Below, one piece after another: positions 2 to 48,774 of a stretch of DNA of 49,899 bases. Made by a program: the position numbers and the translations under genes. The stretch is from Kiloniellaceae bacterium. GTDB taxonomy: Bacteria; Pseudomonadota; Alphaproteobacteria; Kiloniellales; Kiloniellaceae. The notes beneath the pieces were generated by a model that did no database searches, was not told the DNA's origin, and saw nothing but the letters and a program-made list of their open reading frames with translations. The stretch spans positions 1-49,899 of the forward strand of contig JAJFGM010000569.1 in NCBI GenBank assembly GCA_021776145.1, in the 5' to 3' direction. Numbering within the stretch: position 1 is the stretch's first letter; every line of letters begins with the position of its first letter.

Positions 2-2676
<2,675 letters not shown>

Positions 2677-2686
<10 letters not shown>

Positions 2687-3444: not shown

Positions 3445-3520
3445 GGGCCCGTAGCTCAGTTGGTAGAGCAGCTGACTTTTAATCAGCGGGTCACAGGTTC
3501 GAATCCTGTCGGGCTCACCA
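3445..3520 (+). tRNA. tRNA-Lys (anticodon UUU), CCA encoded
   Basis: Cloverleaf read by eye. Acceptor GGGCCCG/CGGGCTC (one G-U pair), D arm GCTC-AGTTGGT-AGAGC, anticodon arm GCTGA-CTTTTAA-TCAGC, T arm ACAGG-TTCGAATC-CTGTC, then A-CCA. Confidence 0.9.
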
Positions 3521-3675: not shown

Positions 3676-4566
3676 TTAGGTCGGGTCTTTGAGGGCATAG
3701 AACAGATCCCAGCCAGTTCTCGAAATGGTGAACTTAGGTTCAAATTCAGTGCTGCCGGCGGTTCTAGGTTGCATCTTAATCAAGCCCGAGATGCGGACCC
3801 TATCCAAAGCCAAATCCGTGCGATCCGCGTCCCACTGAAATTCTGCGACTTCCTCATGTCCGCCCCTTGGGATCCTGACGTAACGCAACACTGCAGGGAT
3901 TTTGGTAGGGTTGGCAATTGAGCTATCTGTTGTTACTTGCCCGAACGGTCGGTAATCCCGGTTCGCTGTCTCAGCGTTACGGGTCCTGTGGCCCGGCAGG
4001 ATTTCTACGAGTGCCCGTCTGGTGCGCTCACCAAATTCATCTTGGGGCTTGGCCAAAACAAGTGACGAGCGGTCTCTTTCAGGCTGATCGAGTGTCAGTA
4101 CATCGATCAAACTCGCGCAAAGCCGAAAGAACCCAGCGTCGTCTGGCGCCATACGTTCCAAAAGATCCTTATAGATCTTTTGGGGCTCAAGAGGGTTTTC
4201 TGGTTTGGTTACGTTGACAAGAAGGTTCGCCCAGAGATCCTGAAGCGTCGGGTCATCCTCGGTTTCAAGGCCTGCCTCATAGCTGTAAGCAACACGGGGC
4301 GGCACCGGAGTGGCAATGGCCAGGTCGATTCCGGCAGCATCTGCTTTTTGTTTCGCCCGCAGATAAATTGAGCGACGATTCTCCAGGCGCCAGTTGACCT
4401 CTTCTCTGAGGTGCACGCTGAGATCTGTGAGAATACCCCATCCTTGTCCAAATGGCCCCAGAAGATTCGCGCCTATGCGTTCCAAATCGCCAAGCTTTGC
4501 CAGCATCTCACGACCAAGTTTGGCCGATTCCTGTACAGCCTTTGCTGTTTCAGCGTGCTCAGACAT
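3676..4566 (-). CDS. Abi-alpha (DUF4393)-like protein; lower-GC cargo gene between attL and int
   Basis: 296 aa. Central segment VPPRVAYSYEAGLETEDDPTLQDLWANLLVNV...YKDLLERMAPDDAGFF matches the family pattern (P.P...le....D..L..(M/L)(W/F)ANLL ... L..(L/M)sP.(D/E)A). GC is visibly lower than the neighbours. Confidence 0.6.
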   Translation of the reverse strand: MSEHAETAKAVQESAKLGREMLAKLGDLERIGANLLGPFGQGWGILTDLSVHLREEVNWRLENRRSIYLRAKQKADAAGIDLAIATPVPPRVAYSYEAGLETEDDPTLQDLWANLLVNVTKPENPLEPQKIYKDLLERMAPDDAGFFRLCASLIDVLTLDQPERDRSSLVLAKPQDEFGERTRRALVEILPGHRTRNAETANRDYRPFGQVTTDSSIANPTKIPAVLRYVRIPRGGHEEVAEFQWDADRTDLALDRVRISGLIKMQPRTAGSTEFEPKFTISRTGWDLFYALKDPT

Positions 4567-4610: not shown

Positions 4611-5684
4611 CTATTCAATTCCTTTGCCAGCCGCGTCGAGACGGGCGATGGCGGCGGCGGCGCGGCGCTTCTTGGCGGTGTACTTGCGGACCATTTCGGC
4701 AGTCTTGTGGCCGGTGATCGCGGCGATGGTTGGCCAGTCGCAGCCGAGTTCGTGCAGGACCGTGGCGGCGGTGTAGCGCAGGCCGTGGCTTGTGCAGTCG
4801 TCGGGCAGGCCGGCGGCGCGATAGGCGTCGCGCATTTCGTGGCGGAAGTGGTCGACCTTGTAGGCGCGGCCGGCGTCGGTGACGAGTATCACGACGTTCT
4901 TGTGCTGCTTTAGCCAGGGCTCCAAGGTGTCGCGTAAGGCCTGGCTGGCGGGAATTTCGACCCTTTCGCCAGTCTTTTCCTGGGCGACCTTGATCCAGCC
5001 GTCCGCCGCATAGTGGCGGCGGTCCATGGCGACTACGTCACCGCCGCGTTGTCCGGTCGCGAGTAGCAATTCAAAGGCGGTGCGTTGGCGCGTACCGATT
5101 GCCCAGATGTCGCGGAAGGCGTCGACTTCGTAGGTTTCCCAAGGCCTGTGGCCATCGCCGGTCTTCAGTTGGCGCGGACGCCGGGCCGGGTTCGACCAGG
5201 CCGGTGGCAAACCGAAACGGCGCTTGCGGTCCTCGGCAAAGTTGAGAATGAGGCGCAGGACCGACAGCAGATAGTTGGCGGTGCGCGGTGTTGCCTGGTA
5301 GGCGTCGCGCAATTCGAAGATGAAATCGCGCGGCATGGCGCGGACCTTCAGGTCGCCATAGTGTTCTTTCAGGCGGTCGAGATAGCGGCCGTAATCGCGC
5401 CGCGTCTTCGGCTTCAATTGCGTGAAGTCCGGCGCGGCGCGATAGGCCTCGATCAATGCCGCCAGGGTGCCGGCGCCGGCCGATTGCGGGCCTGTGGCCT
5501 CAAAAGATTCGTGCGTGCGTCGGTAAGCGTCGAGCCATTCCGGCGTGCCGACACTGCCCGGAATGCGAATGCAGAGGCCGTCGCGGCGGTAGTAGGAATA
5601 GACGCGGCCACGCTGGCGGAAAACGTTTATGTGGGGCAGTTCAATTTTGGTCACGCCTTGGCGTTCCTGACTCGCTTCATCCAA
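4611..5684 (-). CDS. int: Tyrosine recombinase / phage integrase
   Basis: C-terminal catalytic region HGLRYTAATVLHELGCDWPTIAAITGHKTAEMVRKYT (H-x-x-R ... H ... Y). An alternative GTG start at 5654 would give a GTGA overlap with the xis stop. Confidence 0.92.
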   Translation of the reverse strand: MDEASQERQGVTKIELPHINVFRQRGRVYSYYRRDGLCIRIPGSVGTPEWLDAYRRTHESFEATGPQSAGAGTLAALIEAYRAAPDFTQLKPKTRRDYGRYLDRLKEHYGDLKVRAMPRDFIFELRDAYQATPRTANYLLSVLRLILNFAEDRKRRFGLPPAWSNPARRPRQLKTGDGHRPWETYEVDAFRDIWAIGTRQRTAFELLLATGQRGGDVVAMDRRHYAADGWIKVAQEKTGERVEIPASQALRDTLEPWLKQHKNVVILVTDAGRAYKVDHFRHEMRDAYRAAGLPDDCTSHGLRYTAATVLHELGCDWPTIAAITGHKTAEMVRKYTAKKRRAAAAIARLDAAGKGIE

Positions 5685-7388: not shown

Positions 7389-7429
7389 CGGACAGGGATC
7401 AGAAGCGTCGGCGGTGAAGCGGGGGCGGC

Positions 7430-7663
7430 TCATTGCAGCATCGCCGGCGTGAAGAGTGGGGCGCGGTCGATATCCTCGACCATGGCATCGACGGCGAGGA
7501 AGAAACCGCCGATGAAGAGGCCGAAGGCGATGGCGTAGACGGCGAGGACGGCGACAAGCCGCAAAATCATCGCCTGTTGCTCGCCTGCGTCGGACAAAAA
7601 AGTGGCGCGTCGCCGGGATCGACGAACGCGCCAGTTTGGAGAAAGTGTGGCGGGTCGGTTCAT
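7430..7663 (-). CDS. Small membrane protein (hypothetical)
   Basis: 77 aa with a hydrophobic stretch ILRLVAVLAVYAIAFGLFIGGFFLAV. ATGA overlap with the upstream gene's stop at 7660-7663. Confidence 0.45.
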   Translation of the reverse strand: MNRPATLSPNWRVRRSRRRATFLSDAGEQQAMILRLVAVLAVYAIAFGLFIGGFFLAVDAMVEDIDRAPLFTPAMLQ

Positions 7664-15830: not shown

Positions 15831-18257
15831 ATGACCGACACCGAACAGCTCCTCGAAATAGCGCGAAGAGGCCCAGATGCCTGGAATCGATGGCGACGGG
15901 ACAACCGCGACGAGGTGGTGGACTTTTCAGGCGTCGATTTTCGTCAAGAGGACCGTGTAGGCATCAATTTTTTGGGGTTCAAGTTCGGTAATGACGCTTG
16001 TTTTAGTGGCGCCAAATTTGGGGATCACAGCCGTTTCCGAGGTGTTCTTTTTGGAAACAACGCGGATTTTAGCGACGCGGTATTCGGTGCAGATGCCCGG
16101 TTTCAAGAATCAAAATTTGGCGCTGGCGCTAACTTCGAAAGGGCGAATTTCTACGGGGAGGCCCACTTTGAAGGCACAAAATTCGGCGATGAAGCCCAAT
16201 TCCGTAATGCAATATTAGGGCAAAATACTCATCTGGGCGGCACAACTTTTGGGAAAAACTCACGGTTCGATGGTGCAAATTTCGGTATTTGTGTTGAGCT
16301 GAAGGGGGCGATATTTGGAGAAGCTTCTTGTTTTCATAGTTGCAAATTCGGTAGAGAGGCCCTGTTTGATAATGCAGTTATAGGAGATGATTCGCGGTTC
16401 GAGGGCGCTGAGTTTGGTGACTTGGCGCAATTCCGCGGTACAAAGTTTGGGTCCCGTGTTCGTTTTGATAATATAATTATTGGATCAAAGGCGAATTTTG
16501 ATACCGCATCGTTTGGCGAGGAAACGCAGTTTTGTGGCGCGACGTTTGGCGGAGAAACCAATTTTGAGAATGTCATAATTGGCGATCGGGTCGGATTCAA
16601 AGGTGTAAAATTTGGAGATTCAGCAAATTTTGAGGCCACGACATTCGGAGAATATGTCGAATTTGATGCCTCAATTTTCGGCGATCTTACGTCTTTCAGG
16701 CACGCGATATTTGGGAACGATACCAGATTCGAGGCCGCGAAGTTCGGAGCCCGGACACGGTTTGAGGGTGCGACTTTTGGTGATGCCGCATGGTTCGCTC
16801 GCGCGACGTTTGGGGACTCAGCTAACTTCGCAGACGCGAAGTTCGGTGCGAGGGCGCGGTTTGAGGGCGCGGAATTCGGAAAAATAGCGTGGTTTAAGGG
16901 CACGAAGTTTGGCGAAGCGGCGCAGTTCGAGCGCGCGCAATTCGAAGATCAAAGCTGTTTCCAGGACGCGATATTCGGAGATGATGCTTGGTTCCACTCA
17001 GCAGAATTTGGCTACTCGCCAAGGTTCGAAGGCGTGATTTTTGGGCGCGACGCCAATTTTGGTGCCGCGTCGTTTGGAGCAATAGCGCGCTTCAGGGGCG
17101 CAACATTTGGGAACAGCGCAGATTTCGAAGATTCAACTTTTGGGGAGTCGGCCTGGTTCCAGGATGCGAAATTCGGGAGCATGGCCGGGTTCGAAGGTGC
17201 TTGGTTTGGTCCCTCAGCCCGGTTTGAAGGCGTGCAATTTGGGTTTCTCGCCAATTTTCAAGGGGCAACCTTCGAAAGTGAGGTGCGGTTCCATGGAGCG
17301 GCTTTCGAGCGTAAGGTCATTTTCGATGAGGTGACTTTCTTGGGGCCAGTTCACTTTGGCAGTGTGTCAGGAGTTGCTGAGTACGCCGACAGTCCAGAAA
17401 CGGAAGTGTCGTCGTCTGGGAGTGCGACAAACGATGCCGAGAGTGGCGCCCAACTTCATGACGCTGCCGCGAGGGTGGGTTCGGTTTCCTTTGCGGGAGC
17501 GCGGTTCGAAGGACTGGCCTATTTTCACGACTTGGATTTTCGCGGCGAAGCCAATTTCTCGAACGCCTGTTTTTCCGCTCCGCCCGATTTTCGTGCAACG
17601 CAACACCGCGAAAATCTCGATTGGATCGGTATTAAATTCGCGTTCGGCCCGCATGTCCGCTTTGGCCGCGCTTCCATTAATTGGAGCTGGACAGCTCAAA
17701 ACGACACAATCACACGCCTGCGACGGCTGAGAGGCATTGCAAACGAAATTCATGCGGTTGATGCGGAGCGCGACCTCTTCATCCTTGAACGCCAAGCGGA
17801 GCGTGGCGTCTTCTGGCGCGACTGGTGGCGGGGGGGATGGGGTTCATGGTTTACAGGGTGGTGGCGTCCGCTGTCTGCAACGGTGCTGATGTTTCTCTAT
17901 GTCTGTACTTCCAATTGCGGCCGCAGTTTATTGCTGCCCCTGGGATGGCTGGCTGCTTCGAACTGGGGTTTCTACCAGCTGTATGGATACCTCTATACCG
18001 TTCTGATCGACCGCCCATTGTTTATCGCGGTCAAAAAGGCGTTGTTTGACTTGACTTTTGCCAGCGCTTTACCGTTCGGCGCGACCGCCCGCCCGGCCTT
18101 TCAGTCTGCGATCAAGGTCCTCTTCGAGCAGGACAGCGGCAGCGCGATCGATATCCCATGGCAAATCCAAGCCGCTTCGGCAGCACAAGGAATCACAAAT
18201 CTCGTGCTCCTCTTCCTGCTCGGCCTCGCACTGCGCAACTACTTCAAGTTCAGGTAA
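15831..18257 (+). CDS. Giant pentapeptide-repeat protein fused to a C-terminal multi-TM, channel-like module
   Basis: 808 aa. The N-terminus LLEIARRGPDAWNRWRRDN is a typical pentapeptide-protein leader. About 95 consecutive pentads have a 10-residue super-period (AKFGDHSRFRGVLFGNNADF...). The C-terminus has hydrophobic helices (LSATVLMFLYV, LLLPLGWLAASNWGFYQLY, ITNLVLLFLLGLAL) and an LFDLTFASALPFGAT segment. Low GC. Confidence 0.9.
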   Translation: MTDTEQLLEIARRGPDAWNRWRRDNRDEVVDFSGVDFRQEDRVGINFLGFKFGNDACFSGAKFGDHSRFRGVLFGNNADFSDAVFGADARFQESKFGAGANFERANFYGEAHFEGTKFGDEAQFRNAILGQNTHLGGTTFGKNSRFDGANFGICVELKGAIFGEASCFHSCKFGREALFDNAVIGDDSRFEGAEFGDLAQFRGTKFGSRVRFDNIIIGSKANFDTASFGEETQFCGATFGGETNFENVIIGDRVGFKGVKFGDSANFEATTFGEYVEFDASIFGDLTSFRHAIFGNDTRFEAAKFGARTRFEGATFGDAAWFARATFGDSANFADAKFGARARFEGAEFGKIAWFKGTKFGEAAQFERAQFEDQSCFQDAIFGDDAWFHSAEFGYSPRFEGVIFGRDANFGAASFGAIARFRGATFGNSADFEDSTFGESAWFQDAKFGSMAGFEGAWFGPSARFEGVQFGFLANFQGATFESEVRFHGAAFERKVIFDEVTFLGPVHFGSVSGVAEYADSPETEVSSSGSATNDAESGAQLHDAAARVGSVSFAGARFEGLAYFHDLDFRGEANFSNACFSAPPDFRATQHRENLDWIGIKFAFGPHVRFGRASINWSWTAQNDTITRLRRLRGIANEIHAVDAERDLFILERQAERGVFWRDWWRGGWGSWFTGWWRPLSATVLMFLYVCTSNCGRSLLLPLGWLAASNWGFYQLYGYLYTVLIDRPLFIAVKKALFDLTFASALPFGATARPAFQSAIKVLFEQDSGSAIDIPWQIQAASAAQGITNLVLLFLLGLALRNYFKFR

Positions 18258-18264
18258 CGCGCAT

Positions 18265-20073
18265 CTATTCGAATGGCCGCCCAAAATAGACCAGTGCCCA
18301 TAGTGCCAGCAGATAGACACTCACCAGCGACTGTATCCCCGAGACGACGCGCACCCAGCCTCTTGGCCGCAGGGTGTATTCTCGCGACTGCAGCCGGAGG
18401 ATCCAGTTCCCAACGTTGAGATCTCGCCAGCCGATATGGAAGGCCGAAAGGACGCTGAAATATAGGCCGTACCAGAAAATCGCGAGCAAGTTGTTGCGGT
18501 GGAATCGATCGACGATTGCGTCTTCTGCCAACACCGTGCCCTCTTCGGTCTTGCTGTCTTCGTCCAATCTCCCTTCCGGCCAAACCTGGAATAATCCGCC
18601 CCGGCCGGAATGCTTCGGCGATTGGGCAATGGGGTAGGTGTAAACACACCAAAAGACCAGGATCAGGAACCCGAGTATTTCTATCGGCCGCCCCGGGGAA
18701 TACCCCCAATCGCTCGTGAGTTCGAACAAAGTGTAGCTGAAAGCGCTTTCGATGGTAGGCGCTTTGCGCCGTTCGTTCCGCTTGATCAAAAAGGTCAGGT
18801 ATCTTTCTGCCTCCCGATCACCCGCCTCTTTGAGCTTCTTGCGGACTGTCACAAGCCCTTCCGGGAAATCAGCCGATCCCAGGGGCTCGAAGGCTGCGAG
18901 ATCCAGTAAATCCACGCCTACCAAAGAGGCATTGCTGAGTAGAGAGCCAGAGAAGATCGCGGCGGCGAGTTTGCTGTACTGTAAGTTCGCGCCTCTAAAG
19001 TCGGTATTGCTCAGATTCGTGTCTATGAGGTTGGCAGATTCGAGGGTGGCGTTCTGCAGCTCGGCGCGCTGCAGGTTGGCCTTTTGCAGCTCCGCGCCGG
19101 ATAGATCGGCCTTTTGCAGATTGGTGAAGCTCAGGTTGGCCATTTGCAGATTTGCGCGGAATAGGTTGGCCTCCTGCAAGTTGGCGAGGCTCAGGTTAGC
19201 CTCTTGCAATCTGGCGAGCTCTAGGTTGGCCTTCTGCAGATTGGCCTCGAATAGGATCGCCCCTAGCAGATCGGCGCGGCGGAGGTCGGCCTTTAGCAAC
19301 ACGGCTTCATCTAAGTCGGCATTCTGCAGGTTTGCGAAGCGCAGGTCGGCCTCTTGCAGGTTGGTGCGGCTCAGGTTGGCCTTTTGGAGTATTGTGCGCT
19401 GCAGGCTGGAATTTTCCAGATCGGCGTGCTGCAGGGCGGCCTTTTTCAGATTGGCGCTGAATAGGTTGGCCTCTCGTAGATTGGCGAAGAATAGGTTGGC
19501 CTCTTGCAGATTGGCGCCGCTCAAGTTGGCGTTTTGCAAGTCGGTGAAGCTCAGGTTGGTCTTTTTCAGGTCGGCGCGGGTCAGGTTGGTCTTCTGCAGG
19601 TTGGCCTTGAATAGGATCGCCCCTAGTAGGTCGGCGCGGAATAGGTTGGCCTCTTGCAGATTGGCGCCGCTCAGGTTGGCCTCTTGCAGATTGGCGCCGC
19701 TCAAGTTGGCGTTTTGCAAGTCGGTGAAGCTAAGGTTGGCCTTTTTCAGGTCGGCGCCGATCAGGTTGGTCTCTTGCAGATTGGCGCGGCTCAAGTTGGC
19801 GCCGCAAAGAATGGCCCGACCTGCTTTTGCGGAACCCTTCGACCAGTCTAAGTGGGCCTCAAGAATTGATTTCAGTTCTTGCGGGGTGATTCCTCTTCCA
19901 GCATAAGGACACTGTTCGTCCTTTGAATCGGCGCTCACTGTCGGCCCGGTGAAGCCGAACAAACCCGTCAAGATAACGGCAGCGCCAACGGCCGCTAAAA
20001 TCTGACGTTTCCACCGATGCTTCACATCACACTCCAGTGCGTGGCGTTCTTCGACCCTCGAAGCAAACCACAC
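18265..20073 (-). CDS. Pentapeptide-repeat protein with N-terminal membrane anchor/signal and C-terminal channel-like module
   Basis: 602 aa. N-terminal hydrophobic ILAAVGAAVILTGLFGF. About 60 canonical A(N/D)Lxx pentads (ANLQEANLSGANLQEANL...). The C-terminus has TSDWGYSPGRPIEILGFLILVFWCVY, LYFSVLSAFHIGWRDL and a final TM helix, IQSLVSVYLLALWALVYF. Its stop lies 7 nt from the stop of the convergent gene. Confidence 0.9.
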   Translation of the reverse strand: MWFASRVEERHALECDVKHRWKRQILAAVGAAVILTGLFGFTGPTVSADSKDEQCPYAGRGITPQELKSILEAHLDWSKGSAKAGRAILCGANLSRANLQETNLIGADLKKANLSFTDLQNANLSGANLQEANLSGANLQEANLFRADLLGAILFKANLQKTNLTRADLKKTNLSFTDLQNANLSGANLQEANLFFANLREANLFSANLKKAALQHADLENSSLQRTILQKANLSRTNLQEADLRFANLQNADLDEAVLLKADLRRADLLGAILFEANLQKANLELARLQEANLSLANLQEANLFRANLQMANLSFTNLQKADLSGAELQKANLQRAELQNATLESANLIDTNLSNTDFRGANLQYSKLAAAIFSGSLLSNASLVGVDLLDLAAFEPLGSADFPEGLVTVRKKLKEAGDREAERYLTFLIKRNERRKAPTIESAFSYTLFELTSDWGYSPGRPIEILGFLILVFWCVYTYPIAQSPKHSGRGGLFQVWPEGRLDEDSKTEEGTVLAEDAIVDRFHRNNLLAIFWYGLYFSVLSAFHIGWRDLNVGNWILRLQSREYTLRPRGWVRVVSGIQSLVSVYLLALWALVYFGRPFE

Positions 20074-24750: not shown

Positions 24751-25500
24751 TTAGGGCTGATTTCTCGGATTGGGAATGCAAGCATCTGTGAGCGAGCGCC
24801 CAAGAGGCATCAGTTTGAGTTCCATGACCCTTCTTACACTAGTTTGTTTGCCGCTGGCATCGAAGATCGGTTCCTGAGGCTCTATAATTTCGTAACAGGC
24901 GAGGCCCAAATGATACAAATGTTCAGTATAGAAATTCAAATTGACTGGGACAAAAAGCCGATCTAACGGAAAATCATATGGGATCTCTACTTTGAGATTT
25001 GTCCAATAGGACGCTTTTGATGATTTATTTCGTTCTGGGTTTATATCGAGTGTTTCTGTTTGTTTGTATGTACGCGTTCTTAGGAGTTCTAATATGATCG
25101 CCTCGTCGCTTGAAAGCTGACTTATTAACACCGGAAAGGACGGGTGCGCCTTACCATAGTTCTCGCGATCCATCGAACCGCTGAGAAGATTGCTAAACAT
25201 CTCATCAATTGGCGTATCTTCGGGCTCATAGCGTATACCTTCTAGCGACGGCCCTAAGATTTGCGGTGGCGGTGAAACTCTTCTCTCTTCTGGAATTTTG
25301 CGAACTGATTTTTCAAGAAAGCGTCGGTATCTATCTTGACTAGCGGACGCATATTGAAGAAAAAACAAGGCAACCCTTATTGTCTTTGCGCTATCCTCTA
25401 ACAAATGTCCAACTTGTTTAACCACCGGCCTCGCCAAGTCATCATAGATTGATTTAACAGGTAAGATCTTTGCCAGTGATGTGATCGGATCGTCGGTCAT
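24751..25500 (-). CDS. Abi-alpha (DUF4393)-like protein; low-GC cargo gene between terL and gpW
   Basis: 249 aa from the ATG at 25500, with a GGGAGG upstream (the ORF track starts at a TTG at 25518). SPPPQILGPSLEGIRYEPEDTPIDEMFSNLLSGSM...HPSFPVLISQLSSDEAIILELL is the family signature. Opposite strand to the late operon. Confidence 0.7.
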   Translation of the reverse strand: MTDDPITSLAKILPVKSIYDDLARPVVKQVGHLLEDSAKTIRVALFFLQYASASQDRYRRFLEKSVRKIPEERRVSPPPQILGPSLEGIRYEPEDTPIDEMFSNLLSGSMDRENYGKAHPSFPVLISQLSSDEAIILELLRTRTYKQTETLDINPERNKSSKASYWTNLKVEIPYDFPLDRLFVPVNLNFYTEHLYHLGLACYEIIEPQEPIFDASGKQTSVRRVMELKLMPLGRSLTDACIPNPRNQP

Positions 25501-25648
25501 AGCATAGAAGCCTCCCAATCATTCTCTTACAGAACCGTTTCTGGGACTCTAAGCGCAACAGGTCAATCTTGCCATAAAGGTCGCCGCGTTTCTAGCCGCC
25601 CGGCAAAGCATGTTCGTCATCAAAGAAAACCAACCTGCGTAGGTATTC

Positions 25649-39306: not shown

Positions 39307-40434
39307 TTACTCTTGTCTCGGTTTTTCTCTCCGTCTTTCTTGGATTTCCAGAAAATCTCGGGCCGCGGCAAGTTGGTCTTCCGACATCTCCACTTCCATC
39401 ATCTCTTTGAACTTAGGTTCCCACCTATTGATGATGGCATTAAGGGAAATCTCATCGGTTCGCCCGACATTAACTTGGCGTTTGATCAAGGGGGCCAATT
39501 CAGGCGCGAGTTCTTTGTCCTCGAACATTCTCTTGAATATCCAAAGATAGACATCGACTAATTCTAAACCGGCGCTTTCTGTCCCTGAAGAAAAGCCAAT
39601 TTCTGTTTGAGGCATGCCCCGAAAATCGAGCGCAGGAAGTCCTGGACCATTCGCCAGGTTCTCCCCACTCAATCTTGCGTACCAATCTGCGGTTTGTGCT
39701 TGTGCCTTGTTGAATTGAGATTGTCGATCCACAACGATTCCCAACGACTTTCGCGAGGAGTTTAAGAGTCGCTGCGCTATTCCGATCATCACGCTTTGAA
39801 ACCCGATGGCATTCGGCATGACGGAAACAGCGTCAGATTTACTTTGGACGTTGTAGGAGACCTCGTTGGTATTTTCGATGGTCCACTTAAGCGCATCCGT
39901 CACAATTTCTCGGGTGCGCGCATCAGGTAGGTTTTGGGAACGCCGGACTAATTCCTCGCAGACTTGCCTTAGTATTTCTTCGGCCTTCGCGTTGTTTGGA
40001 GAAATTCGGGCAGCCCACGCAGCCCTTAAAAGCTTCTCGTCAAATAGCTTTGCCAGACGCACTAGCAGCATATAGCGAAGAGGCGTCCAATAGGAAGCCC
40101 AGGGGACTGCTGGGTTCATTCCCTGGTCGAAAACTTGGTCAAAAAAACAAATGGCTGCGTGGTCGATCTTCTGGAGGCGGTAAAAATCGAACCGGAGATC
40201 GAATTTCTTCTGCACCCTGACTAGATCAGGTGCAATTTCGCTCAATCCAGCGTTTCCGATTTCACTGGCATGCAGGCGGTCAACGCCTAGTCGTTTTCGG
40301 GTCTTCACCAAAAATGGTTCGGCAAGGACATCCAAATTTGCGCGACTGCAAAGCGTTCCATAGAAAAGCATCGGCTGATCGCGGTCGAACAGGTTTGGGC
40401 CGGTATGGCCGCTTTCATCCACGTAAAAATACAC
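39307..40434 (-). CDS. DUF3800 domain protein; low-GC cargo gene between tail chaperone and tape measure
   Basis: 375 aa. N-terminus MYFYVDESGHTGPNLFD is the DUF3800 signature (hydrophobic-DESG). Opposite strand to the late operon. Confidence 0.8.
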   Translation of the reverse strand: MYFYVDESGHTGPNLFDRDQPMLFYGTLCSRANLDVLAEPFLVKTRKRLGVDRLHASEIGNAGLSEIAPDLVRVQKKFDLRFDFYRLQKIDHAAICFFDQVFDQGMNPAVPWASYWTPLRYMLLVRLAKLFDEKLLRAAWAARISPNNAKAEEILRQVCEELVRRSQNLPDARTREIVTDALKWTIENTNEVSYNVQSKSDAVSVMPNAIGFQSVMIGIAQRLLNSSRKSLGIVVDRQSQFNKAQAQTADWYARLSGENLANGPGLPALDFRGMPQTEIGFSSGTESAGLELVDVYLWIFKRMFEDKELAPELAPLIKRQVNVGRTDEISLNAIINRWEPKFKEMMEVEMSEDQLAAARDFLEIQERRREKPRQE

Positions 40435-42685: not shown

Positions 42686-43966
42686 ATGACCTGGCGTGAC
42701 GACTTCCGGCCGGCCTCCTGGCGCGGCGTGGCCTTCCACGTCGAGGCGCACGATAGGGGCAGCGGCCACAGCCAGGAGACCCATCTCTTCCCGCGCGCCG
42801 AGGCGTCCGAGTCCTCGCCGGAACGGCCCGACCACTACGTCGAGGACCTCGGCCGCGAGCCCGATCTCTACCAGGTCGAGGGCTACGTCGTCGGTGACGA
42901 CTACCTGACCGCCGCCGCCGAGCTCGACGCCGCCATGCGCCAGCCCGGTGCGGGCACCCTGGTGCATCCCTATCTGGGCGAGCTGACGGTCAAGCCATCG
43001 ACTTGGCGGCGGCGGGAAGATCGCCGCGAGGGCGGCCTGGCGCGCTTTACCCTGAACTTCACCGAGCCCGGCCGCGACAGCAATCCGGCGCCGCGCGTCG
43101 ATACCCAGGCCCAGGTCGACCTGGCGGCCGACCGGGCGGTCGTCTTGACCGAGGCACGCTTCGTAGAGACCTACGAGGTCGAGGGCCGGCCCGGCTTCCT
43201 GGCCGAGGCCGCCTGCGGCATTCTGCAAGAGGCTGCGGCGGCGGCCGACCGGGTCCTGCAAGCGTTGCCGCCCGGCGTCCAGGCGGCCGGTTCCGTGGCG
43301 CTCGACGTCGCCCTCTTCGCACTGGACGTGGCCCAGTCCGGCCCGGGCGCCCTGTTGCGCGATCCCGTGGCCCTGGCCGCCCGCACCAGCGGCGTGACCG
43401 CCGGCCTGGCGGGGCTGCCCACCACGGCCCAATCGGACGCGGCGGGGCTGACCACGCGTCTGCGCCAGGGAGACCTGGGGCCGTTGCGCAGCTTGACCGA
43501 ATTCGGCGGCCAGCTTGCGCCTGTGGCGGCGGTGACCGCGACACGCCTGCAGCAGGGCCTCAACCAGCAGGCCCTGGTCTCGCTGGTGCGCCAGGCCGCC
43601 ACCATCGGCCTGACGCGGTCCGCGCGCGACGTGCTGCCGGCCTCCTACGACGACGCCGTGCGCCTGCGCGACAGCCTCGACGGCCTGCTCGAGGCGCAAA
43701 TCACCGATGCCGGCGACCGCGGCGACGATGCCGCCTTCGAGGCGCTGTCGGAACTGCGCGGCCGCATGGTCGCCGACCTGACAACGCGCGCCGCCAACCT
43801 CGTGCGCATCGTGCCGCGGGTGTTGCGCCAGGCACAGCCGGCCCTGGTTCTTGCCTACGACCTTTACGAGGACGCCCTGCGCGATGCCGAACTGGCGGCG
43901 CGCAACGGCATTCGCCATCCCGGCTATCTGCCCGGCGGCCGCGACCTGGAGACCCTCGGCCGATGA
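42686..43966 (+). CDS. DNA circulation protein (Mu gp43-like)
   Basis: N-terminus WRDDFRPASWRGVAFHVEAHDRGSGHSQETHLFP...YVEDLGREPDLYQVEGYVVGDDY is the family signature. Confidence 0.85.
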   Translation: MTWRDDFRPASWRGVAFHVEAHDRGSGHSQETHLFPRAEASESSPERPDHYVEDLGREPDLYQVEGYVVGDDYLTAAAELDAAMRQPGAGTLVHPYLGELTVKPSTWRRREDRREGGLARFTLNFTEPGRDSNPAPRVDTQAQVDLAADRAVVLTEARFVETYEVEGRPGFLAEAACGILQEAAAAADRVLQALPPGVQAAGSVALDVALFALDVAQSGPGALLRDPVALAARTSGVTAGLAGLPTTAQSDAAGLTTRLRQGDLGPLRSLTEFGGQLAPVAAVTATRLQQGLNQQALVSLVRQAATIGLTRSARDVLPASYDDAVRLRDSLDGLLEAQITDAGDRGDDAAFEALSELRGRMVADLTTRAANLVRIVPRVLRQAQPALVLAYDLYEDALRDAELAARNGIRHPGYLPGGRDLETLGR

Positions 43967-44026: not shown

Positions 44027-45124
44027 ATGACTGTCGAGCTTTTCGTCGGAGGGCGCATCTTCGAGGGCTGGGAGTCCATCGAGGTCAGCCGCGGCCTCGA
44101 TCGCTCGGCCGGCAGCTTCGCCCTGCGCGTGTCGGACCGGCCCTGGGGGATCCGCCCGGGCGCGCCCTGTTCGGTCGCGCTCGACGGCGAGAAGGTGCTG
44201 ACCGGCTACGTCGACACCGTGGCGCCGTCCTTCGATGCCAAGAGCCACAGCCTGGCGGTGAACGGCCGCAGCCGAGTCGCCGACCTGGTCGACAACTCCG
44301 CGGAGTTCGCCGGCGGCCAGTTCTCCGGCATGACGCTCGGCCAGATCGCGGCGGCGCTGGCCAAGCCCTTCGGCATAACCGTGCGCTCCGACCAGCCCGC
44401 CATAGCTTCAGGGGCGGGCGCGCCCTTCGAGACGGTGAAACTGAACCCGGGCGAGACCGTCTTCGAGGTCCTGGAAAAGCTGGCGCGCCATCTGTCGCTG
44501 GTCCTGACCGACAACGCCCAGGGCGACCTGGTCATCACCGCCGCCGCCCGCGCCCGCGCCGATACGGCGCTTGTGGAAAGCGCCGCCGCCGGCGGCAACA
44601 TCCTCGCCGCCCGCGGCCGCTTTTCGGTCTCCGGCCGGCACAGCAGCTATCGTGTCCTCGGCCAGCGCAAGGGCCTGGACAGCCTGACGGAAAAGCAGGC
44701 GGCCCAGGTCGAGGGCATCGCCCGCGATCCCGGCGTCGCCGAGCTCCGGCACCGGCCCCTGGTGCTGCAGAGCGCGACGCCCCTGACGCCCGGCCTGGCC
44801 GGCCGCCTGGCGCGCCACGAGGCGGCCGTGCGCTATGGCCGCGCCGCCGCCGTCGAGGTCACGCTCCGGGGTTGGCGCCAGGGGGCGAACGGCACGGCCG
44901 GGCGCCTGTGGGTGCCCAACGAGATCGCCCGCCTGGAGGCGCCGCGCCTGGCGCTGGCCCGCGACATGCTGATCGTTGCCGTCACCTATTCCATGGGCAA
45001 GGGCGGCATGCAAACGCACCTGAGCCTGGCCCGGCCGGAAGCCTACGACCCGGCGCCGCCGGCCGCGATCGATGCCGCCGGCGACCCCTGGGCCGCCTTG
45101 CGCAAGGACATTGCCGATGGCTAG
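44027..45124 (+). CDS. Baseplate hub protein (Mu gp44 / P2 gpD-like)
   Basis: 365 aa. VGGRIFEGWESIEVSRGLDRSAGSFAL...VLTGYVD fits the family pattern and gene order. Confidence 0.85.
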   Translation: MTVELFVGGRIFEGWESIEVSRGLDRSAGSFALRVSDRPWGIRPGAPCSVALDGEKVLTGYVDTVAPSFDAKSHSLAVNGRSRVADLVDNSAEFAGGQFSGMTLGQIAAALAKPFGITVRSDQPAIASGAGAPFETVKLNPGETVFEVLEKLARHLSLVLTDNAQGDLVITAAARARADTALVESAAAGGNILAARGRFSVSGRHSSYRVLGQRKGLDSLTEKQAAQVEGIARDPGVAELRHRPLVLQSATPLTPGLAGRLARHEAAVRYGRAAAVEVTLRGWRQGANGTAGRLWVPNEIARLEAPRLALARDMLIVAVTYSMGKGGMQTHLSLARPEAYDPAPPAAIDAAGDPWAALRKDIADG

Positions 45125-45767
45125 TGGGCCATCGGTCGTTGCCGCCCTGAAGGACCTCTGGCGCCGCGTCGCCATGCTCGTGGCCCGCGCCGTCATCACC
45201 CGGGTGTCCGACGCCGGCGGCCGCCAGGTCCTGCAGACCGAGATCCTCGCCGGCGAGGTGCGTGACGACTTCGAGCGCTTCGCCGAGACCGGCTTCTTTT
45301 CCGTGCCGCTGGCCGGCGCCGGCGCGGTGGTGCTGAGCATCGCCGGCGACCGCTCCCATGCCGTGGTGGTCGCCACCGACGACCGTCGTCACCGGCCGCG
45401 CGGCGGCGCGCCGGGCGACGCCGGGCTCTATCACCCGCTCGACGATCCGAGCAAGTCGGCCGAAGAGTCCCTGCACCGCTGGACGCTGACCGACCGGGGC
45501 GGCGTGCGTACGGCGATCGGGCGATTCGATCGCCTCGACATCAAATGCGGCTCTTCGAGCCTGCTGGTCGAGGATGGCCGCATCCGCCTGGAAGCCGACG
45601 TTATCGAGACCCACGCGCGCGAAAAGATCAAGTGGGACGTCAACGGTTACGGCGAGGACTGGATCTATGTCGATGGCGCGGACCAGTATCACGAGGATAC
45701 CTACAAGATCGATCCTATCCGCGTCGTCGCAGGCGGCGCCTTCAACGTCAACGACCCGGAACATTAG
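45117..45767 (+). CDS. Baseplate spike/assembly protein V (Mu gp45-like)
   Basis: 216 aa. ITRVSDAGGRQVLQTEILAGEVRDDFERFAETGFFSVP is the gpV/gp45 N-terminal OB-fold pattern. Confidence 0.8.
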   Translation: MASGPSVVAALKDLWRRVAMLVARAVITRVSDAGGRQVLQTEILAGEVRDDFERFAETGFFSVPLAGAGAVVLSIAGDRSHAVVVATDDRRHRPRGGAPGDAGLYHPLDDPSKSAEESLHRWTLTDRGGVRTAIGRFDRLDIKCGSSSLLVEDGRIRLEADVIETHAREKIKWDVNGYGEDWIYVDGADQYHEDTYKIDPIRVVAGGAFNVNDPEH

Positions 45768-45970
45768 GTGGTGTCTCAACTTGAAGCCGAATGCCCGAGA
45801 TCGGCCAAGAACGGCCAGTCGATTCGACTACCTGGGGGCCCGGTTTGGATCAGTGAGCGGACGATCAACAGGCCTGGAGCTGAGGCTCACTCGTGACCCT
45901 GAGCGGCCCTTCGCACCCGCCTCGTGAGTGTCCGCATTCAAGCCGAAGCGGACGTCGGTCCCCGAGTCAG

Positions 45971-46858
45971 TTATGAATGAGACTGAGGTCTGTCGTATAG
46001 CCATCGTCGATATTTTTCGAGACCAGGAAGCGCCTCTCGTAAATGTCTGGAGGGTCTTTCAGCTCGCACCAAGCTAACTAACGTTGGCACCGACATCGTT
46101 GCAACTGCCTGTCCAGCGTCGGCGCCCTGTGCTCGTTGGAGATGGTGAAACGTTGCCTTCGTCATGAATTCTGAGGAACTGGCCTTCAGCTCGCCGATTA
46201 GCCGATAGGTGAACTGATAGACAAGATTCCCATATTCGATCACCTCTTCGGCGGACGGAATGTATCCCTTGTGAATTACGTCATTTCTGAACGCACTCCA
46301 AGTCGGTGTATCTCCCCGGCTACGGCCATCCAACTCGGGTCTTGCCTCAAGAATTAGGGGCTCAAGCGGCTTTTTGTTTTCAACAAGGTAGAAAAACAGG
46401 AAGGCGCCAATTTGTCGTTCAGATTGCTTAGAAATCGGGGCCCACGCTTCGCTGAACTGCTCGTAGGTGATTCCATGCTTGAGCGAGACGACGAGAATGT
46501 AATACTCGAAGAAACGTTCAAGCGATGCGGCGGTGCTTGAGACTGCCTCCCGTGTATAGCCGTCGAGCAAAGCCATTGCACCCAAATCAAATAGAATCTC
46601 AAATTTCTGCTCTTGGATGGCCGTGACGGTAACGTGACCCCGAGAGCACGTGACCTCGTATAGACCGTCATCACGCAATTCGACCGAATTTGCCAACTCG
46701 GGCGGCTGTCCATCCACTTCAAGGCACTTCATGCAGGAGGTGCGCAGTCGCATTGTGTCCTTCCGTGCAACTTCTTCTCTTCGTGGCCGGCATTGACCGA
46801 GTTTTTTGACGCGCCGGTCTCCTCGAATGAACGACACGCCGTCAACCTCGATTTTCAT
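45971..46858 (-). CDS. Zinc-ribbon plus HEPN-motif protein; low-GC cargo gene between gp45 and gp46
   Basis: 295 aa. An alternative start at 46753 gives 260 aa; both starts have RBS-like purine runs. N-terminal CMKC...CSRGH. C-terminal WSAFRNDVIHKGYIP contains an R-N-x3-H (Rx4H) HEPN-type motif. Opposite strand to the late operon. Confidence 0.55.
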   Translation of the reverse strand: MKIEVDGVSFIRGDRRVKKLGQCRPRREEVARKDTMRLRTSCMKCLEVDGQPPELANSVELRDDGLYEVTCSRGHVTVTAIQEQKFEILFDLGAMALLDGYTREAVSSTAASLERFFEYYILVVSLKHGITYEQFSEAWAPISKQSERQIGAFLFFYLVENKKPLEPLILEARPELDGRSRGDTPTWSAFRNDVIHKGYIPSAEEVIEYGNLVYQFTYRLIGELKASSSEFMTKATFHHLQRAQGADAGQAVATMSVPTLVSLVRAERPSRHLREALPGLEKYRRWLYDRPQSHS

Positions 46859-47167
46859 ATATCACACCTTGCATGTCGGCTCCAGGTCAAGGCCGAGCTC
46901 CCACCGCAGAGGCTCTTAATTTCCGATTTGATCGGAAAACGGAAGCGCGCGTAAGGGGCCGGAAGTCTCCTCCTGGCTAGTTTCGCCCGTCCCGGCCGCC
47001 GGTAGATCACGCCCATACTACCCCTAACAGCGGACGACCGGTCTGGGATCCAAAGCTTACGGTCAGTGCCCGACCATGAATGGCCGAGTTGGGTCGATTG
47101 CGGCCCGCTAACTTCAAACTGTGACACTGCTGAATATCAACCTCGCGAACGCCGTTCGCGCGCCCGG

Positions 47168-47195
47168 CGCCGGTCCTTCAAGGGCCGGCGTTTTT
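47168..47195 (+). terminator. Canonical intrinsic terminator 18 nt upstream of the gp46 start codon
   Basis: 9-bp stem cgccggtcc/gggccggcg (one G-U pair), 5-nt loop ttcaa, then ttttt. Preceded by the palindrome cgcgaacgccgttcgcg (47144-47160). Confidence 0.6.
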
Positions 47196-47212
47196 CTTTG
47201 GAGACAGAACTC

Positions 47213-47695
47213 ATGCCCGATTTGCAAGTCACGGCCGCCGCCGCCGATTTCATCGACCTGGCGCTCGCCGGCGGCCGCCTGCAGGAAGGCGAGGCGCTGC
47301 AATCGGCCGTCGTTCTCTCGATCTTCTCCGACGCCCGCGCCCGCGCCGACGACCCCTTGCCGCACCGGGCGCTCTCTCGCCGTGGCTGGTGGGGCGACAG
47401 CCTGGCGCCGCAAAGCGGTGACCGTTTCGGCTCGCGGCTGTGGCTGCTGGCCAACGAGAAGCAGACGGCCGAAACCTTGAACCGTGCCCGGCAATACGCC
47501 GAAGAGGCGCTGGCCTGGCTGAAAGAGGACCGCATCGCCGCCTCGGTCACCGTGCGGGCCCGCTGGGTTCGGCCCAACCAAAAAGACAGTGGAGTTCTGG
47601 GCTTGGAAATCGACATCCTCCGCCCCGCCGGCGCCCTGGTCGCGCTGCGCTACGACTATGCCTGGGCCGAAAGAGCATCGAGGGAGTCCGCCTGA
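47213..47695 (+). CDS. Baseplate protein (Mu gp46-like)
   Basis: 160 aa. DLALAGGRLQEGEALQSAVVLSIFSDARA...RRGWWGD...GSRLWLL...KQTAETLNRARQYAEEALAWL is the GP46 family signature. GGAGA RBS. Confidence 0.8.
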   Translation: MPDLQVTAAAADFIDLALAGGRLQEGEALQSAVVLSIFSDARARADDPLPHRALSRRGWWGDSLAPQSGDRFGSRLWLLANEKQTAETLNRARQYAEEALAWLKEDRIAASVTVRARWVRPNQKDSGVLGLEIDILRPAGALVALRYDYAWAERASRESA

Positions 47696-48774
47696 TGGCT
47701 TTTACCCGTCCGACCGTCACGGTCTTGCGCGACCGCATCGCCACCGACATCAACGCCCGGCTGCCAGGCGCCGACTCGCGCCTGCGCCGCTCCGCCCTGG
47801 AGGTGCTGAGCGTGGCCCTCGCCGGCGTGGTTCACGGCCTCTACGGCTACCTCGACTGGCTGGCGCGCCAGGTCATGGTCGATAGCGCCGAGACTGAACA
47901 CCTGGACCGCCACGCGACGGTCTGGGGCGTGCTGCGCAAGGCGGCGGCGCGGGCCGCCGGCACGGCCACCGCCACGGGCAACGACGGCGTCGAGGTCCCC
48001 GCCGGCACCCTGCTGCAGGCCGGCGAGACCCAGTATCTGACGACCGCCGCCGCCGTGGTCGCGGCCGGCAGCGCCAGCCTGCCGATCGAGGCCGTCGACC
48101 CCGGCGCTGGCGGCAATGCCGCCGCGGGCGTTCTGCTGCTCTACGCCACCCCGGTCGCCGGCATCGACGGCTCGGCCACCGTCGTCCTGCTCGAGGGCGG
48201 CGCCGATGCCGAGATCGACGGCGACCTGCGCCAGCGCGTGCTCGACCGCATCCGCCAGCCGCCGCACGGCGGTGCCGCCCACGACTATGTCGCCTGGGCG
48301 CTCGAGGTGCCGGGGGTCACGCGGGCCTGGCTCACCGCCGGCGAGATGGGTTTGGGCACGATAACCCTGCGCTTCCTGATGGACGACCTCCGGGTCGACG
48401 GCATTCCGCTCGGCGATGCCAGGCCCTTGCTCCCGACGCTGGATATCAAGGTCATGCAGGACTATATCGACGCCGTCGACCGCCGCCCGGTGACGGCCGA
48501 CGTCTTCGCGGCGGCGCCCGAACCGGTCGCCCTCGACGTCACCGTCGACAACTTGCAGCCCAACACGGCGGAGGTCCAGGCCGCCGTGACCGCCGAGATC
48601 GCCGACATGATCAAGCGGGTGGCCGCGCCCGGCGCCACCATCCCGTTGTCGAAGATCTGGGAGGCCGTCTCCATCGCTTCCGGCGAGGCCAGCCACACGA
48701 TCACCGCGCCGGCCGCCGACGTGACCCACACGGCCGGCCAGATGGCGATCCCCGGCTCGGTCACCTTTACCTGA
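47695..48774 (+). CDS. Baseplate J-like protein (Mu gp47-like)
   Basis: 359 aa. TGATG overlap with gp46. Pattern TVLRDRIATDINARLPG...LSVALAGVVHGLYGYLDWLARQ and IRQPPHGGAAHDYVAWALEVPGVTRAW. Confidence 0.88.
   Translation: MAFTRPTVTVLRDRIATDINARLPGADSRLRRSALEVLSVALAGVVHGLYGYLDWLARQVMVDSAETEHLDRHATVWGVLRKAAARAAGTATATGNDGVEVPAGTLLQAGETQYLTTAAAVVAAGSASLPIEAVDPGAGGNAAAGVLLLYATPVAGIDGSATVVLLEGGADAEIDGDLRQRVLDRIRQPPHGGAAHDYVAWALEVPGVTRAWLTAGEMGLGTITLRFLMDDLRVDGIPLGDARPLLPTLDIKVMQDYIDAVDRRPVTADVFAAAPEPVALDVTVDNLQPNTAEVQAAVTAEIADMIKRVAAPGATIPLSKIWEAVSIASGEASHTITAPAADVTHTAGQMAIPGSVTFT

Follow-up and report, generated by a model that had tools for sequence, protein, structure and literature searches.

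A low-GC insert that separates the baseplate genes gp45 and gp46 of a prophage in a Kiloniellaceae bacterium (assembly GCA_021776145.1) carries one reverse-strand gene, which on balance we take to be a horizontally acquired, single-gene moron. Its product would be a solo HEPN ribonuclease (RNase) of abortive infection or exclusion, built from a CCCH zinc ribbon, a domain with an R-N-x3-H motif, and a tail. The window, by which we mean the whole stretch of DNA analyzed, is the entire contig JAJFGM010000569.1 (49,899 bp), with one prophage beside tRNA-Lys and gyrA. An earlier note on this DNA had picked out a zinc ribbon and an R-N-x3-H motif in the gene and had proposed a single-gene abortive-infection RNase; both motifs are the most conserved features of what we find to be a large protein family.

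The gp45 and gp46 genes had been described as split by 1.45 kb of DNA of lower GC content, and this observation is correct given the gp45-gp46 spacing and the absence of the gene from related phages. Pfam matches identify both flanks, and GC content is 0.50 to 0.60 in the insert compared with 0.70 to 0.78 in either flank. The distance from residue 120 of gp45 to residue 20 of gp46 is 1,838 nucleotides (nt) in the window and 158 to 778 nt in 19 relatives from IMG/VR, these being the contigs that share the gene order gp44-45-46-47; the insert gene is present in none of the 19. Third-codon-position GC is 0.55 in the insert gene compared with 0.83 to 0.84 in gp45 and gp46, a gap that points to recent foreign acquisition. 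The gene is thus intact and foreign in composition and lies antisense within the late baseplate operon. Its foreign GC content, its own orientation, and its position between two genes that related phages keep side by side all fit a phage moron, and the HEPN moron reading is favored further because the prophage holds more cargo that is low in GC and on the reverse strand, two Abi_alpha genes among it. Relatives of gp46 in IMG/VR and metagenomes are at most 54% identical, too distant to serve as an empty site for comparison. In the 3′ third of gp45 (approximately 45400 to 45767), GC content has already fallen to 0.60 to 0.66, and the same part does not align with the IMG/VR relatives. The mosaic joint may therefore be located inside gp45, in which case a swap of the spike tip may have arrived together with the cargo.

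The earlier note was right that the insert has one reverse-strand gene, which is the sole convincing open reading frame (ORF) there, and we have moved its start. The longer ORF (45971 to 46858, minus strand; 295 amino acids [aa]) begins at an ATG at 46858 that lacks conservation. We place the start at M36, giving a protein of 260 aa (residues are numbered from M36 throughout), because homologs of 245 to 260 aa have their first residue at the matching position, because the match to the PHROGs entry phrog_19381 (E = 1.2e-53) begins at residue 36 of the 295-aa ORF, and because of two features of the closest relative, locus L114 (82% protein identity). Nucleotide similarity to L114 covers the stretch directly before the M36 ATG, including a purine-rich (GGA) run that may be a ribosome-binding site, and L114 has an in-frame stop within the region equivalent to the N-terminal extension. 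The upstream similarity ends approximately 105 nt before the ATG.

A full-length AlphaFold2 model, computed from a 38-sequence alignment, was confident (predicted local distance difference test [pLDDT], 87; predicted template modeling score [pTM], 0.84). At the N terminus, the CxxC...CxxxH arrangement that had been read from the sequence stands: its residues are invariant or nearly so, and the model gives a four-stranded unit. Residues C7, C36, H40, E79, G116, R156, N157, and H161 never vary among 111 family members that share 32 to 58% identity with the window protein, and C10, D64-G65-Y66, E69, R80, and S111-E112-R113-Q114 are conserved in at least 90%. The invariance of R156, N157, and H161, which is far above chance, also bears out the R-N-x3-H motif. 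Beyond the ribbon, the model has helices at residues 50 to 63 and 67 to 92, an insert spanning residues 97 to 151 (helical at 97 to 126, followed by a loop), a short helix at 152 to 162, and a long helix at 168 to 211. The short helix terminates in F-R-N-x-V-x-H and is followed by the loop KGYIPS, which leads into the long helix.

HEPN domains have been defined as four-helix bundles in which an insert separates helices 2 and 3 and helix 2 carries a conserved acidic residue. Helix 3 of such a bundle ends in an Rx4-6H motif that extends into the loop leading to helix 4, and the motif arginine is directly followed by N, D, or H, all of them polar (PMC3710099). The model shows this topology: its helices run up and down, residues 97 to 151 form the insert that separates helices 2 and 3, and the motif (156 to 161) closes helix 3. 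R156-N157-x3-H161 matches Rx4-6H with a polar residue after the arginine. Helix 67-92 contains two conserved acidic residues, the invariant E79 and E69 (at least 90%); the exact Ex3[KR] spacing is missing. When the helical domain alone (residues 47 to 215) was modeled and compared with 350,542 chains by Foldseek, the first and second matches were 2q00_A and 2q00_B (probability, 1.00 and 0.99; target TM score, 0.68 to 0.70; root mean square deviation, 3.8 to 5.0). HEPN proteins accounted for 6 of the top 35 matches: 2q00 twice, 1o3u, 2hsb, a Csx1, and a Csm6. Three of these structures, 2q00, 1o3u, and 2hsb, are listed as HEPN structures in Table 1 of PMC3710099. The commonest weak Pfam match in the family was PF18735 (HEPN_RiboL-PSP), found in 16 of the 111 members with a best E value of 0.001. 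The family consensus matched the same profile at E = 0.0016 to 0.005 (17 to 19 bits) over the motif, at profile positions 125 to 189 of 191. HEPN proteins are enriched at the top of the fold search, and the case for a HEPN fold rests on this together with the geometry of the motif, not on E values. We conclude that the helical domain very probably belongs to the HEPN superfamily; it lies outside every curated HEPN family.

Several results weigh against reading the gene as a HEPN abortive-infection RNase. The Foldseek search with the full-length model against the PDB and BFVD gave nothing below E = 0.1 and was dominated by long-helix proteins, gyrase and SOS among them. Even for the domain-only model, the E values of the HEPN matches were 0.14 or worse and are not significant alone. 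The PF18735 score of 18.8 bits falls below the gathering cutoff of 28.4 bits, and the window protein itself has no match to this profile. An hhalign comparison of the family alignment with an alignment of 46 AbiV proteins (PF18728, HEPN_AbiV), built from a neighboring gene, gave a null result (probability, 0.7%), and none of the 5,027 models in PADLOC-DB v2 matched at E values up to 10. Many copies of the gene are located among housekeeping genes and not in defense islands, and a sigma-70 consensus scan found no promoter for the window copy. The check for a HEPN fold that had been called for came out in favor of one, with HEPN proteins at the top of the domain-only search; its weak points are the E values and the sub-threshold Pfam matches. 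For the proposed RNase as a whole, each computational test that the note had suggested was favorable without proving function, and the abortive-infection role itself is one that we infer from context and analogues.

The same results bear on a rival reading, in which the helical domain would be something other than a HEPN nuclease, its R-N-x3-H likeness would be coincidental, and the protein would act by binding a ligand, nucleic acid or other, for instance as a regulator with a zinc ribbon. Convergence has produced four-helix bundles repeatedly, and none of the matches to HEPN families, whether by sequence or by fold, reached statistical significance. Given that 6 of the top 35 among 350,542 chains were nonetheless HEPN proteins, we regard such a coincidence as improbable.

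One sequence search returned 459 homologs, all unnamed or labeled hypothetical, none with a Pfam domain, and nearly all 245 to 260 aa long. A profile search of 1.84 billion representatives gave 1,906 clusters (50% identity) at E values of 1e-3 or lower and 1,105 at 1e-30 or lower, with nearly all of the 150 best matches listed measuring 235 to 260 aa. The gene was present in 259 of 185,579 species genomes and on nine plasmids, and its hosts include Proteobacteria, Bacteroidota, Firmicutes, Cyanobacteria, Nitrospirota, Planctomycetota, one Gracilibacteria metagenome-assembled genome (MAG), and one archaeal (Geoglobus) MAG. The family is therefore large, conserved, and very patchy in distribution. 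The phrog_19381 entry carries an unknown-function label, searches of Pfam, NCBIfam, and PDB sequences with the protein and the family profile gave nothing meaningful, and no description of the zinc-ribbon/HEPN family was found in the databases or literature searched.

Alternatively, the gene could serve the phage, either as a counterdefense or host-takeover RNase that degrades host RNAs or immune signals or as a regulator of the prophage cycle. Some HEPN proteins degrade cyclic-oligoadenylate signals, Csm6 and Csx1 are among the fold matches, and the gene occurs within phage genomes (the prophage described here and the SPbeta-like Bacillus phages SPbetaL4 and SPbetaL6) and has a PHROGs family. 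Set against this are the small share of phage records that carry it (those two Bacillus phages, of 50,697), the predominance of solitary chromosomal copies that lie outside prophages, beside housekeeping or defense and mobile genes, and an orientation opposed to the late operon, as is usual for cargo expressed in the lysogen. A phage-serving role is thus unlikely. The copy that SPbetaL4 and SPbetaL6 carry (in SPbetaL4: L112, 5001 to 5726; positions 67014 to 67739 of the phage record) is 33% identical to the window protein. The SPbeta-like copy is the sole forward-strand gene amid immediate reverse-strand neighbors, a placement that mirrors the antisense one in the window. We considered Gad1, Gad2, and other SPbeta anti-defense genes and set them aside; the SPbetaL4 and SPbetaL6 copies are located at about 67 to 72 kb. 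According to the published text, gad2 occupies one shared locus in SPbetaL6 and SPbetaL7; the knockout of SPbetaL7 gad2 removed bases 109.5 to 110.8 kb, and the paper is silent on the family gene.

The proposal that the gene acts alone was borne out in a search for partners. When ORFs within 4 kb of the gene at 83 loci were clustered all against all, no neighbor family recurred in more than seven loci, and the upstream genes in four loci were mutually unrelated. A gene for a minimal nucleotidyltransferase (MNT) was absent from the insert and from the 25 most frequent neighbor Pfam matches listed for these loci. Across 57 family genes, no antisense ORF was conserved, the longest open stretches varying in frame and position, and from 45500 to 47400 of the window there was no Rfam match and there were only two trivial tandem repeats. 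In the absence of a conserved partner, repeat, RNA, or antisense ORF, we regard the gene as a self-contained unit; the family always occurs without a fixed partner. The earlier note had also seen no antitoxin-sized ORF beside the gene. This holds in part: a 90-aa, arginine-rich ORF lies directly upstream, but it has no homolog in 119 loci or elsewhere in the window, and its codon-position GC (0.53/0.60/0.62) looks non-coding. Judged by these features it is probably spurious, and the small ORFs of the insert likewise have no homologs.

Many HEPN proteins are toxins of toxin-antitoxin (TA) pairs. That the window protein is such a toxin, with an antidote that was missed (a distant gene, a protein of small size, or an RNA of antisense or tandem-repeat type), could draw on the ATGA overlap of the 90-aa ORF with the upstream ATG at 46858 and on the restraint of the prophage RNase Tha by a small overlapping antisense gene (PMC11087260), yet it is quite unlikely given the partner search just described, a 90-aa ORF that abuts a start codon unused by the family, and flank conservation extending just approximately 105 nt upstream and approximately 40 nt downstream.

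The immediate neighbors are often housekeeping genes behind which the family gene is tucked, among them those for UbiE, HemD, TatC, RNase D, PNP oxidase, BioY, and an aminotransferase. The other neighbors are mobile-element or defense genes and include integrases, IS110, and HNH genes, type I and II restriction-modification, a CBASS cyclase, DRT, dGTPase, DUF4145, nSTAND3, and several PADLOC candidate families. In a Betaproteobacteria MAG, a gene for AbiV (PF18728, E = 6e-29; L010, 5693 to 6604) lies directly downstream of the family gene. In Hydrogenophaga crocea, DUF4365 and an AbiGi-like gene (E = 7.5e-5; L001, 5913 to 7919) lie upstream of it.

Among known systems, HepS and Tha offer precedents for solo HEPN defense borne by prophages, and they belong to different families. 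HepS of the Salmonella prophage Gifsy-1 is a "HEPN solo" abortive-infection protein with a canonical Rx4H motif that is sensor and effector in one; it is nontoxic at rest and, once triggered by a tail-tip protein, cleaves tRNAs in their anticodon loops (PMC13043305). The window gene resembles it as a prophage-borne single gene with a HEPN-type motif and no co-occurring partner or inhibitor gene, and the family stands alone as HepS-type proteins do (neighbor clustering at 83 loci; window copy in a prophage). The zinc ribbon and C-terminal tail set the family apart from HepS; the definition used for HepS homologs limits them to 250 aa and admits no additional domain. HepS (STM14_3211) appeared neither among PDB sequence matches at E values up to 10 nor among the top 50 fold matches, and the presence of a HepS structure in the PDB set was not confirmed. 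Tha, a HEPN RNase of Staphylococcus aureus prophages, is activated by tail proteins and is restrained at induction by a small inhibitor gene, Ith, that overlaps it in antisense (PMC11087260). Our proposal shares with Tha a prophage HEPN RNase defense that must avoid self-harm and antisense transcription in its control. It differs in that the family has no conserved antisense ORF and the antisense RNA would be read-through from the late operon.

Likeness to other HEPN groups is more partial. The Abi2/Swt1 and RiboL-PSP clade has a motif of the R-N-x3-H type, and the sole recurrent weak Pfam match of the family, over that motif, is to HEPN_RiboL-PSP; the sub-cutoff score (18.8 versus 28.4 bits) and the lack of a match for the window protein separate the two. 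A zinc-ribbon fusion, Npun_R5629, is listed in the Abi2/Swt1 HEPN clade (Table 1 of PMC3710099). By description its architecture is alike, with a zinc ribbon and a HEPN domain; its membership in the window family could not be confirmed, and it is not in the supplement of that paper. The best structural matches to the helical domain are 2q00 (HEPN-T/PaREP1, Sulfolobus) and the minimal HEPN proteins 1o3u and 2hsb, which differ from it in sequence (14% identity; E = 0.14 to 3.6). These are proteins of approximately 120 aa that have no zinc ribbon and are usually paired with nucleotidyltransferases; the PaREP1 family lacks the motif arginine (PMC3710099). With the HepT/MntA (HEPN/MNT) type VII TA modules, the window gene would share a HEPN RNase of toxin type on mobile DNA. 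Those modules are defined by an adjacent MNT antitoxin, in contrast to the window and to the most frequent neighbor families listed for the 83 loci, among which there is none.

If the moron encodes a solo HEPN RNase, it could work as follows. The gene would be transcribed from its own upstream region in the lysogen, and the protein at rest would be an inactive oligomer until a cue from an infecting phage switched it on. The zinc ribbon would be the likeliest sensor or RNA-binding part. Activated protein would then cut cellular RNA (tRNA, mRNA, or rRNA) through a composite HEPN site, aborting the infection; HEPN RNases are described as metal independent, with a composite site formed by two HEPN domains (PMC3710099). 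Transcription from gp45 to gp46 must cross the insert, and late prophage expression would thus yield RNA antisense to the entire gene. This late-operon antisense RNA might damp expression of the gene and so limit self-harm, a shut-off that is speculation and adds to the points against our account. We hold doubtful, and offer only tentatively, the wider idea that the family is a very widespread one-protein immune nuclease in which the zinc ribbon senses a phage trigger and activates the HEPN RNase, with antisense placement silencing the gene during the prophage's own lytic cycle.

Solo HEPN defense proteins such as HepS and Tha, in which one protein senses the phage and kills the infected cell, have been characterized just recently. 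Such an effector is an already known kind, of which the zinc-ribbon family is a variant: a large and conserved family that is missing from Pfam, NCBIfam, and PADLOC and whose domain on the sensor side is a different one. If the family does defend, the catalog would gain a new and compact sensor-effector. The antisense placement makes the avoidance of self-harm directly testable. The insert, the two Abi_alpha genes, and a DUF3800 gene also show that, in a prophage whose baseplate is of the Mu type, structural-gene junctions can accommodate defense cargo.

Coordinates of the features discussed here, given as positions in the window (plus and minus denote strand)
Feature	Position	Strand	Basis or remark
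gyrA	11-2686		Left side of the prophage
tRNA-Lys(TTT)	3445-3520		Adjoins an Abi_alpha gene and the tyrosine integrase, just past gyrA
Tyrosine integrase	4611-5684		Left side of the prophage
gp43-like DNA_circ_N	42686-43966		Pfam; tail region
gp44/GpP	44027-45124		Pfam; upstream of gp45
gp45, baseplate spike, left flank	45072-45767	+	Pfam Phage_Mu_Gp45, 1.8e-24
Low-GC insert, gp45 stop to gp46 start	45768-47212		1,445 bp; fall in GC; relatives without a comparable gap
3′ flank of the gene	45768-45970	-	Just ~40 nt past the stop shared with L114
Zinc-ribbon/HEPN gene, 260 aa from M36, stop codon included	45971-46753	-	Homolog lengths, phrog_19381, comparison with L114
C-terminal tail, residues 216-260	45974-46108	-	Conserved strand (STMSIPTLISL-type), residues 217-220; helix 238-252
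HEPN-like helical domain, residues 47-215	46109-46615	-	Domain-only AlphaFold pLDDT 90.3; Foldseek
Putative catalytic motif R156-N-D-V-I-H161 within FRNDVIHKGYIPS	46271-46288	-	R156/N157/H161 invariant; overlapped by the sub-threshold PF18735 match
N-terminal zinc ribbon, residues 1-46 (C7-x2-C10 ... C36-x3-H40)	46616-46753	-	Conservation; four strands, pLDDT 71-86
5′ leader or promoter region traveling with the gene	46754-46858	-	68% identity over 93 nt to L114
90-aa Arg-rich ORF	46855-47127	-	TGA overlaps ATG 46858 (ATGA)
Perfect 8+3+8 palindrome TTTCCGAT-TTG-ATCGGAAA	46920-46938		Read from the sequence
gp46, right flank	47213-47695	+	Pfam GP46, 2.9e-35; phrog_180 baseplate wedge, 7e-39
Baseplate_J	47692-48774		Pfam; downstream of gp46

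The inverted repeat that the earlier note had reported upstream of the gene is present and longer than first stated, with arms of 8 bp. We reject the operator role suggested for it, since perfect 8-bp hairpins of this kind occur at background frequency (0.62 per kb across the window and in 12% of Markov simulations of the insert) and the repeat lies outside the approximately 105 nt upstream that are shared with L114, where it is not conserved. From its sequence context, the palindrome is probably not functional. A 12-bp GC-rich hairpin followed by TTTTCTTT lies at 47166 to 47192 on the plus strand, that of the late operon, 20 nt ahead of the gp46 ATG. If this were a terminator, it would stop read-through into gp46; one site of this type was found compared with 2.0 expected in shuffles, so its occurrence is not significant.

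In three relatives (L009, approximately 7427 to 7512; L014; and L115, approximately 1923 to 2013), the family gene ends in an attC-like site, in which RYYYAAC and GTTRRRY bound a strong hairpin of 86 to 91 nt (minimum free energy, -28 to -44); a reverse-complement control gave none. It therefore seems that some members of the family are mobilized as integron cassettes. L010 comes close to having such a site, and the Vibrio copies adjoin IS110 and runs of small ORFs. No attC-like site (RYYYAAC ... GTTRRRY) was found at the 3′ end of the gene in the window or in L114, and an integron-cassette origin was rejected for the window copy.

The phage has a Mu-type baseplate, yet it carries an integrase instead of an obvious transposase, and the prophage probably has its left attachment end in the area of tRNA-Lys(TTT) and the integrase. 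The two Abi_alpha genes (PF14337; E = 4e-29 and 5e-9), at 24751 to 25518 and 3676 to 4566, both minus strand, lie in or at the edge of this prophage, and the DUF3800 gene (E = 8e-5; 39307 to 40434, minus strand) lies immediately before its tape-measure gene. All three are low in GC (0.49 to 0.54) and on the reverse strand, like the insert gene, and the prophage looks loaded with candidate defense morons at module junctions. In one IMG/VR relative of the baseplate module (L111, 4354 to 7641), approximately 3.3 kb is inserted between gp46 and gp47, so other junctions of this module also accept cargo. Inside the prophage, a 6-kb block with a GC content of 0.47 to 0.59 encodes two convergent pentapeptide-repeat proteins of 808 aa (15831 to 18257, plus strand) and 602 aa (18265 to 20073, minus strand).

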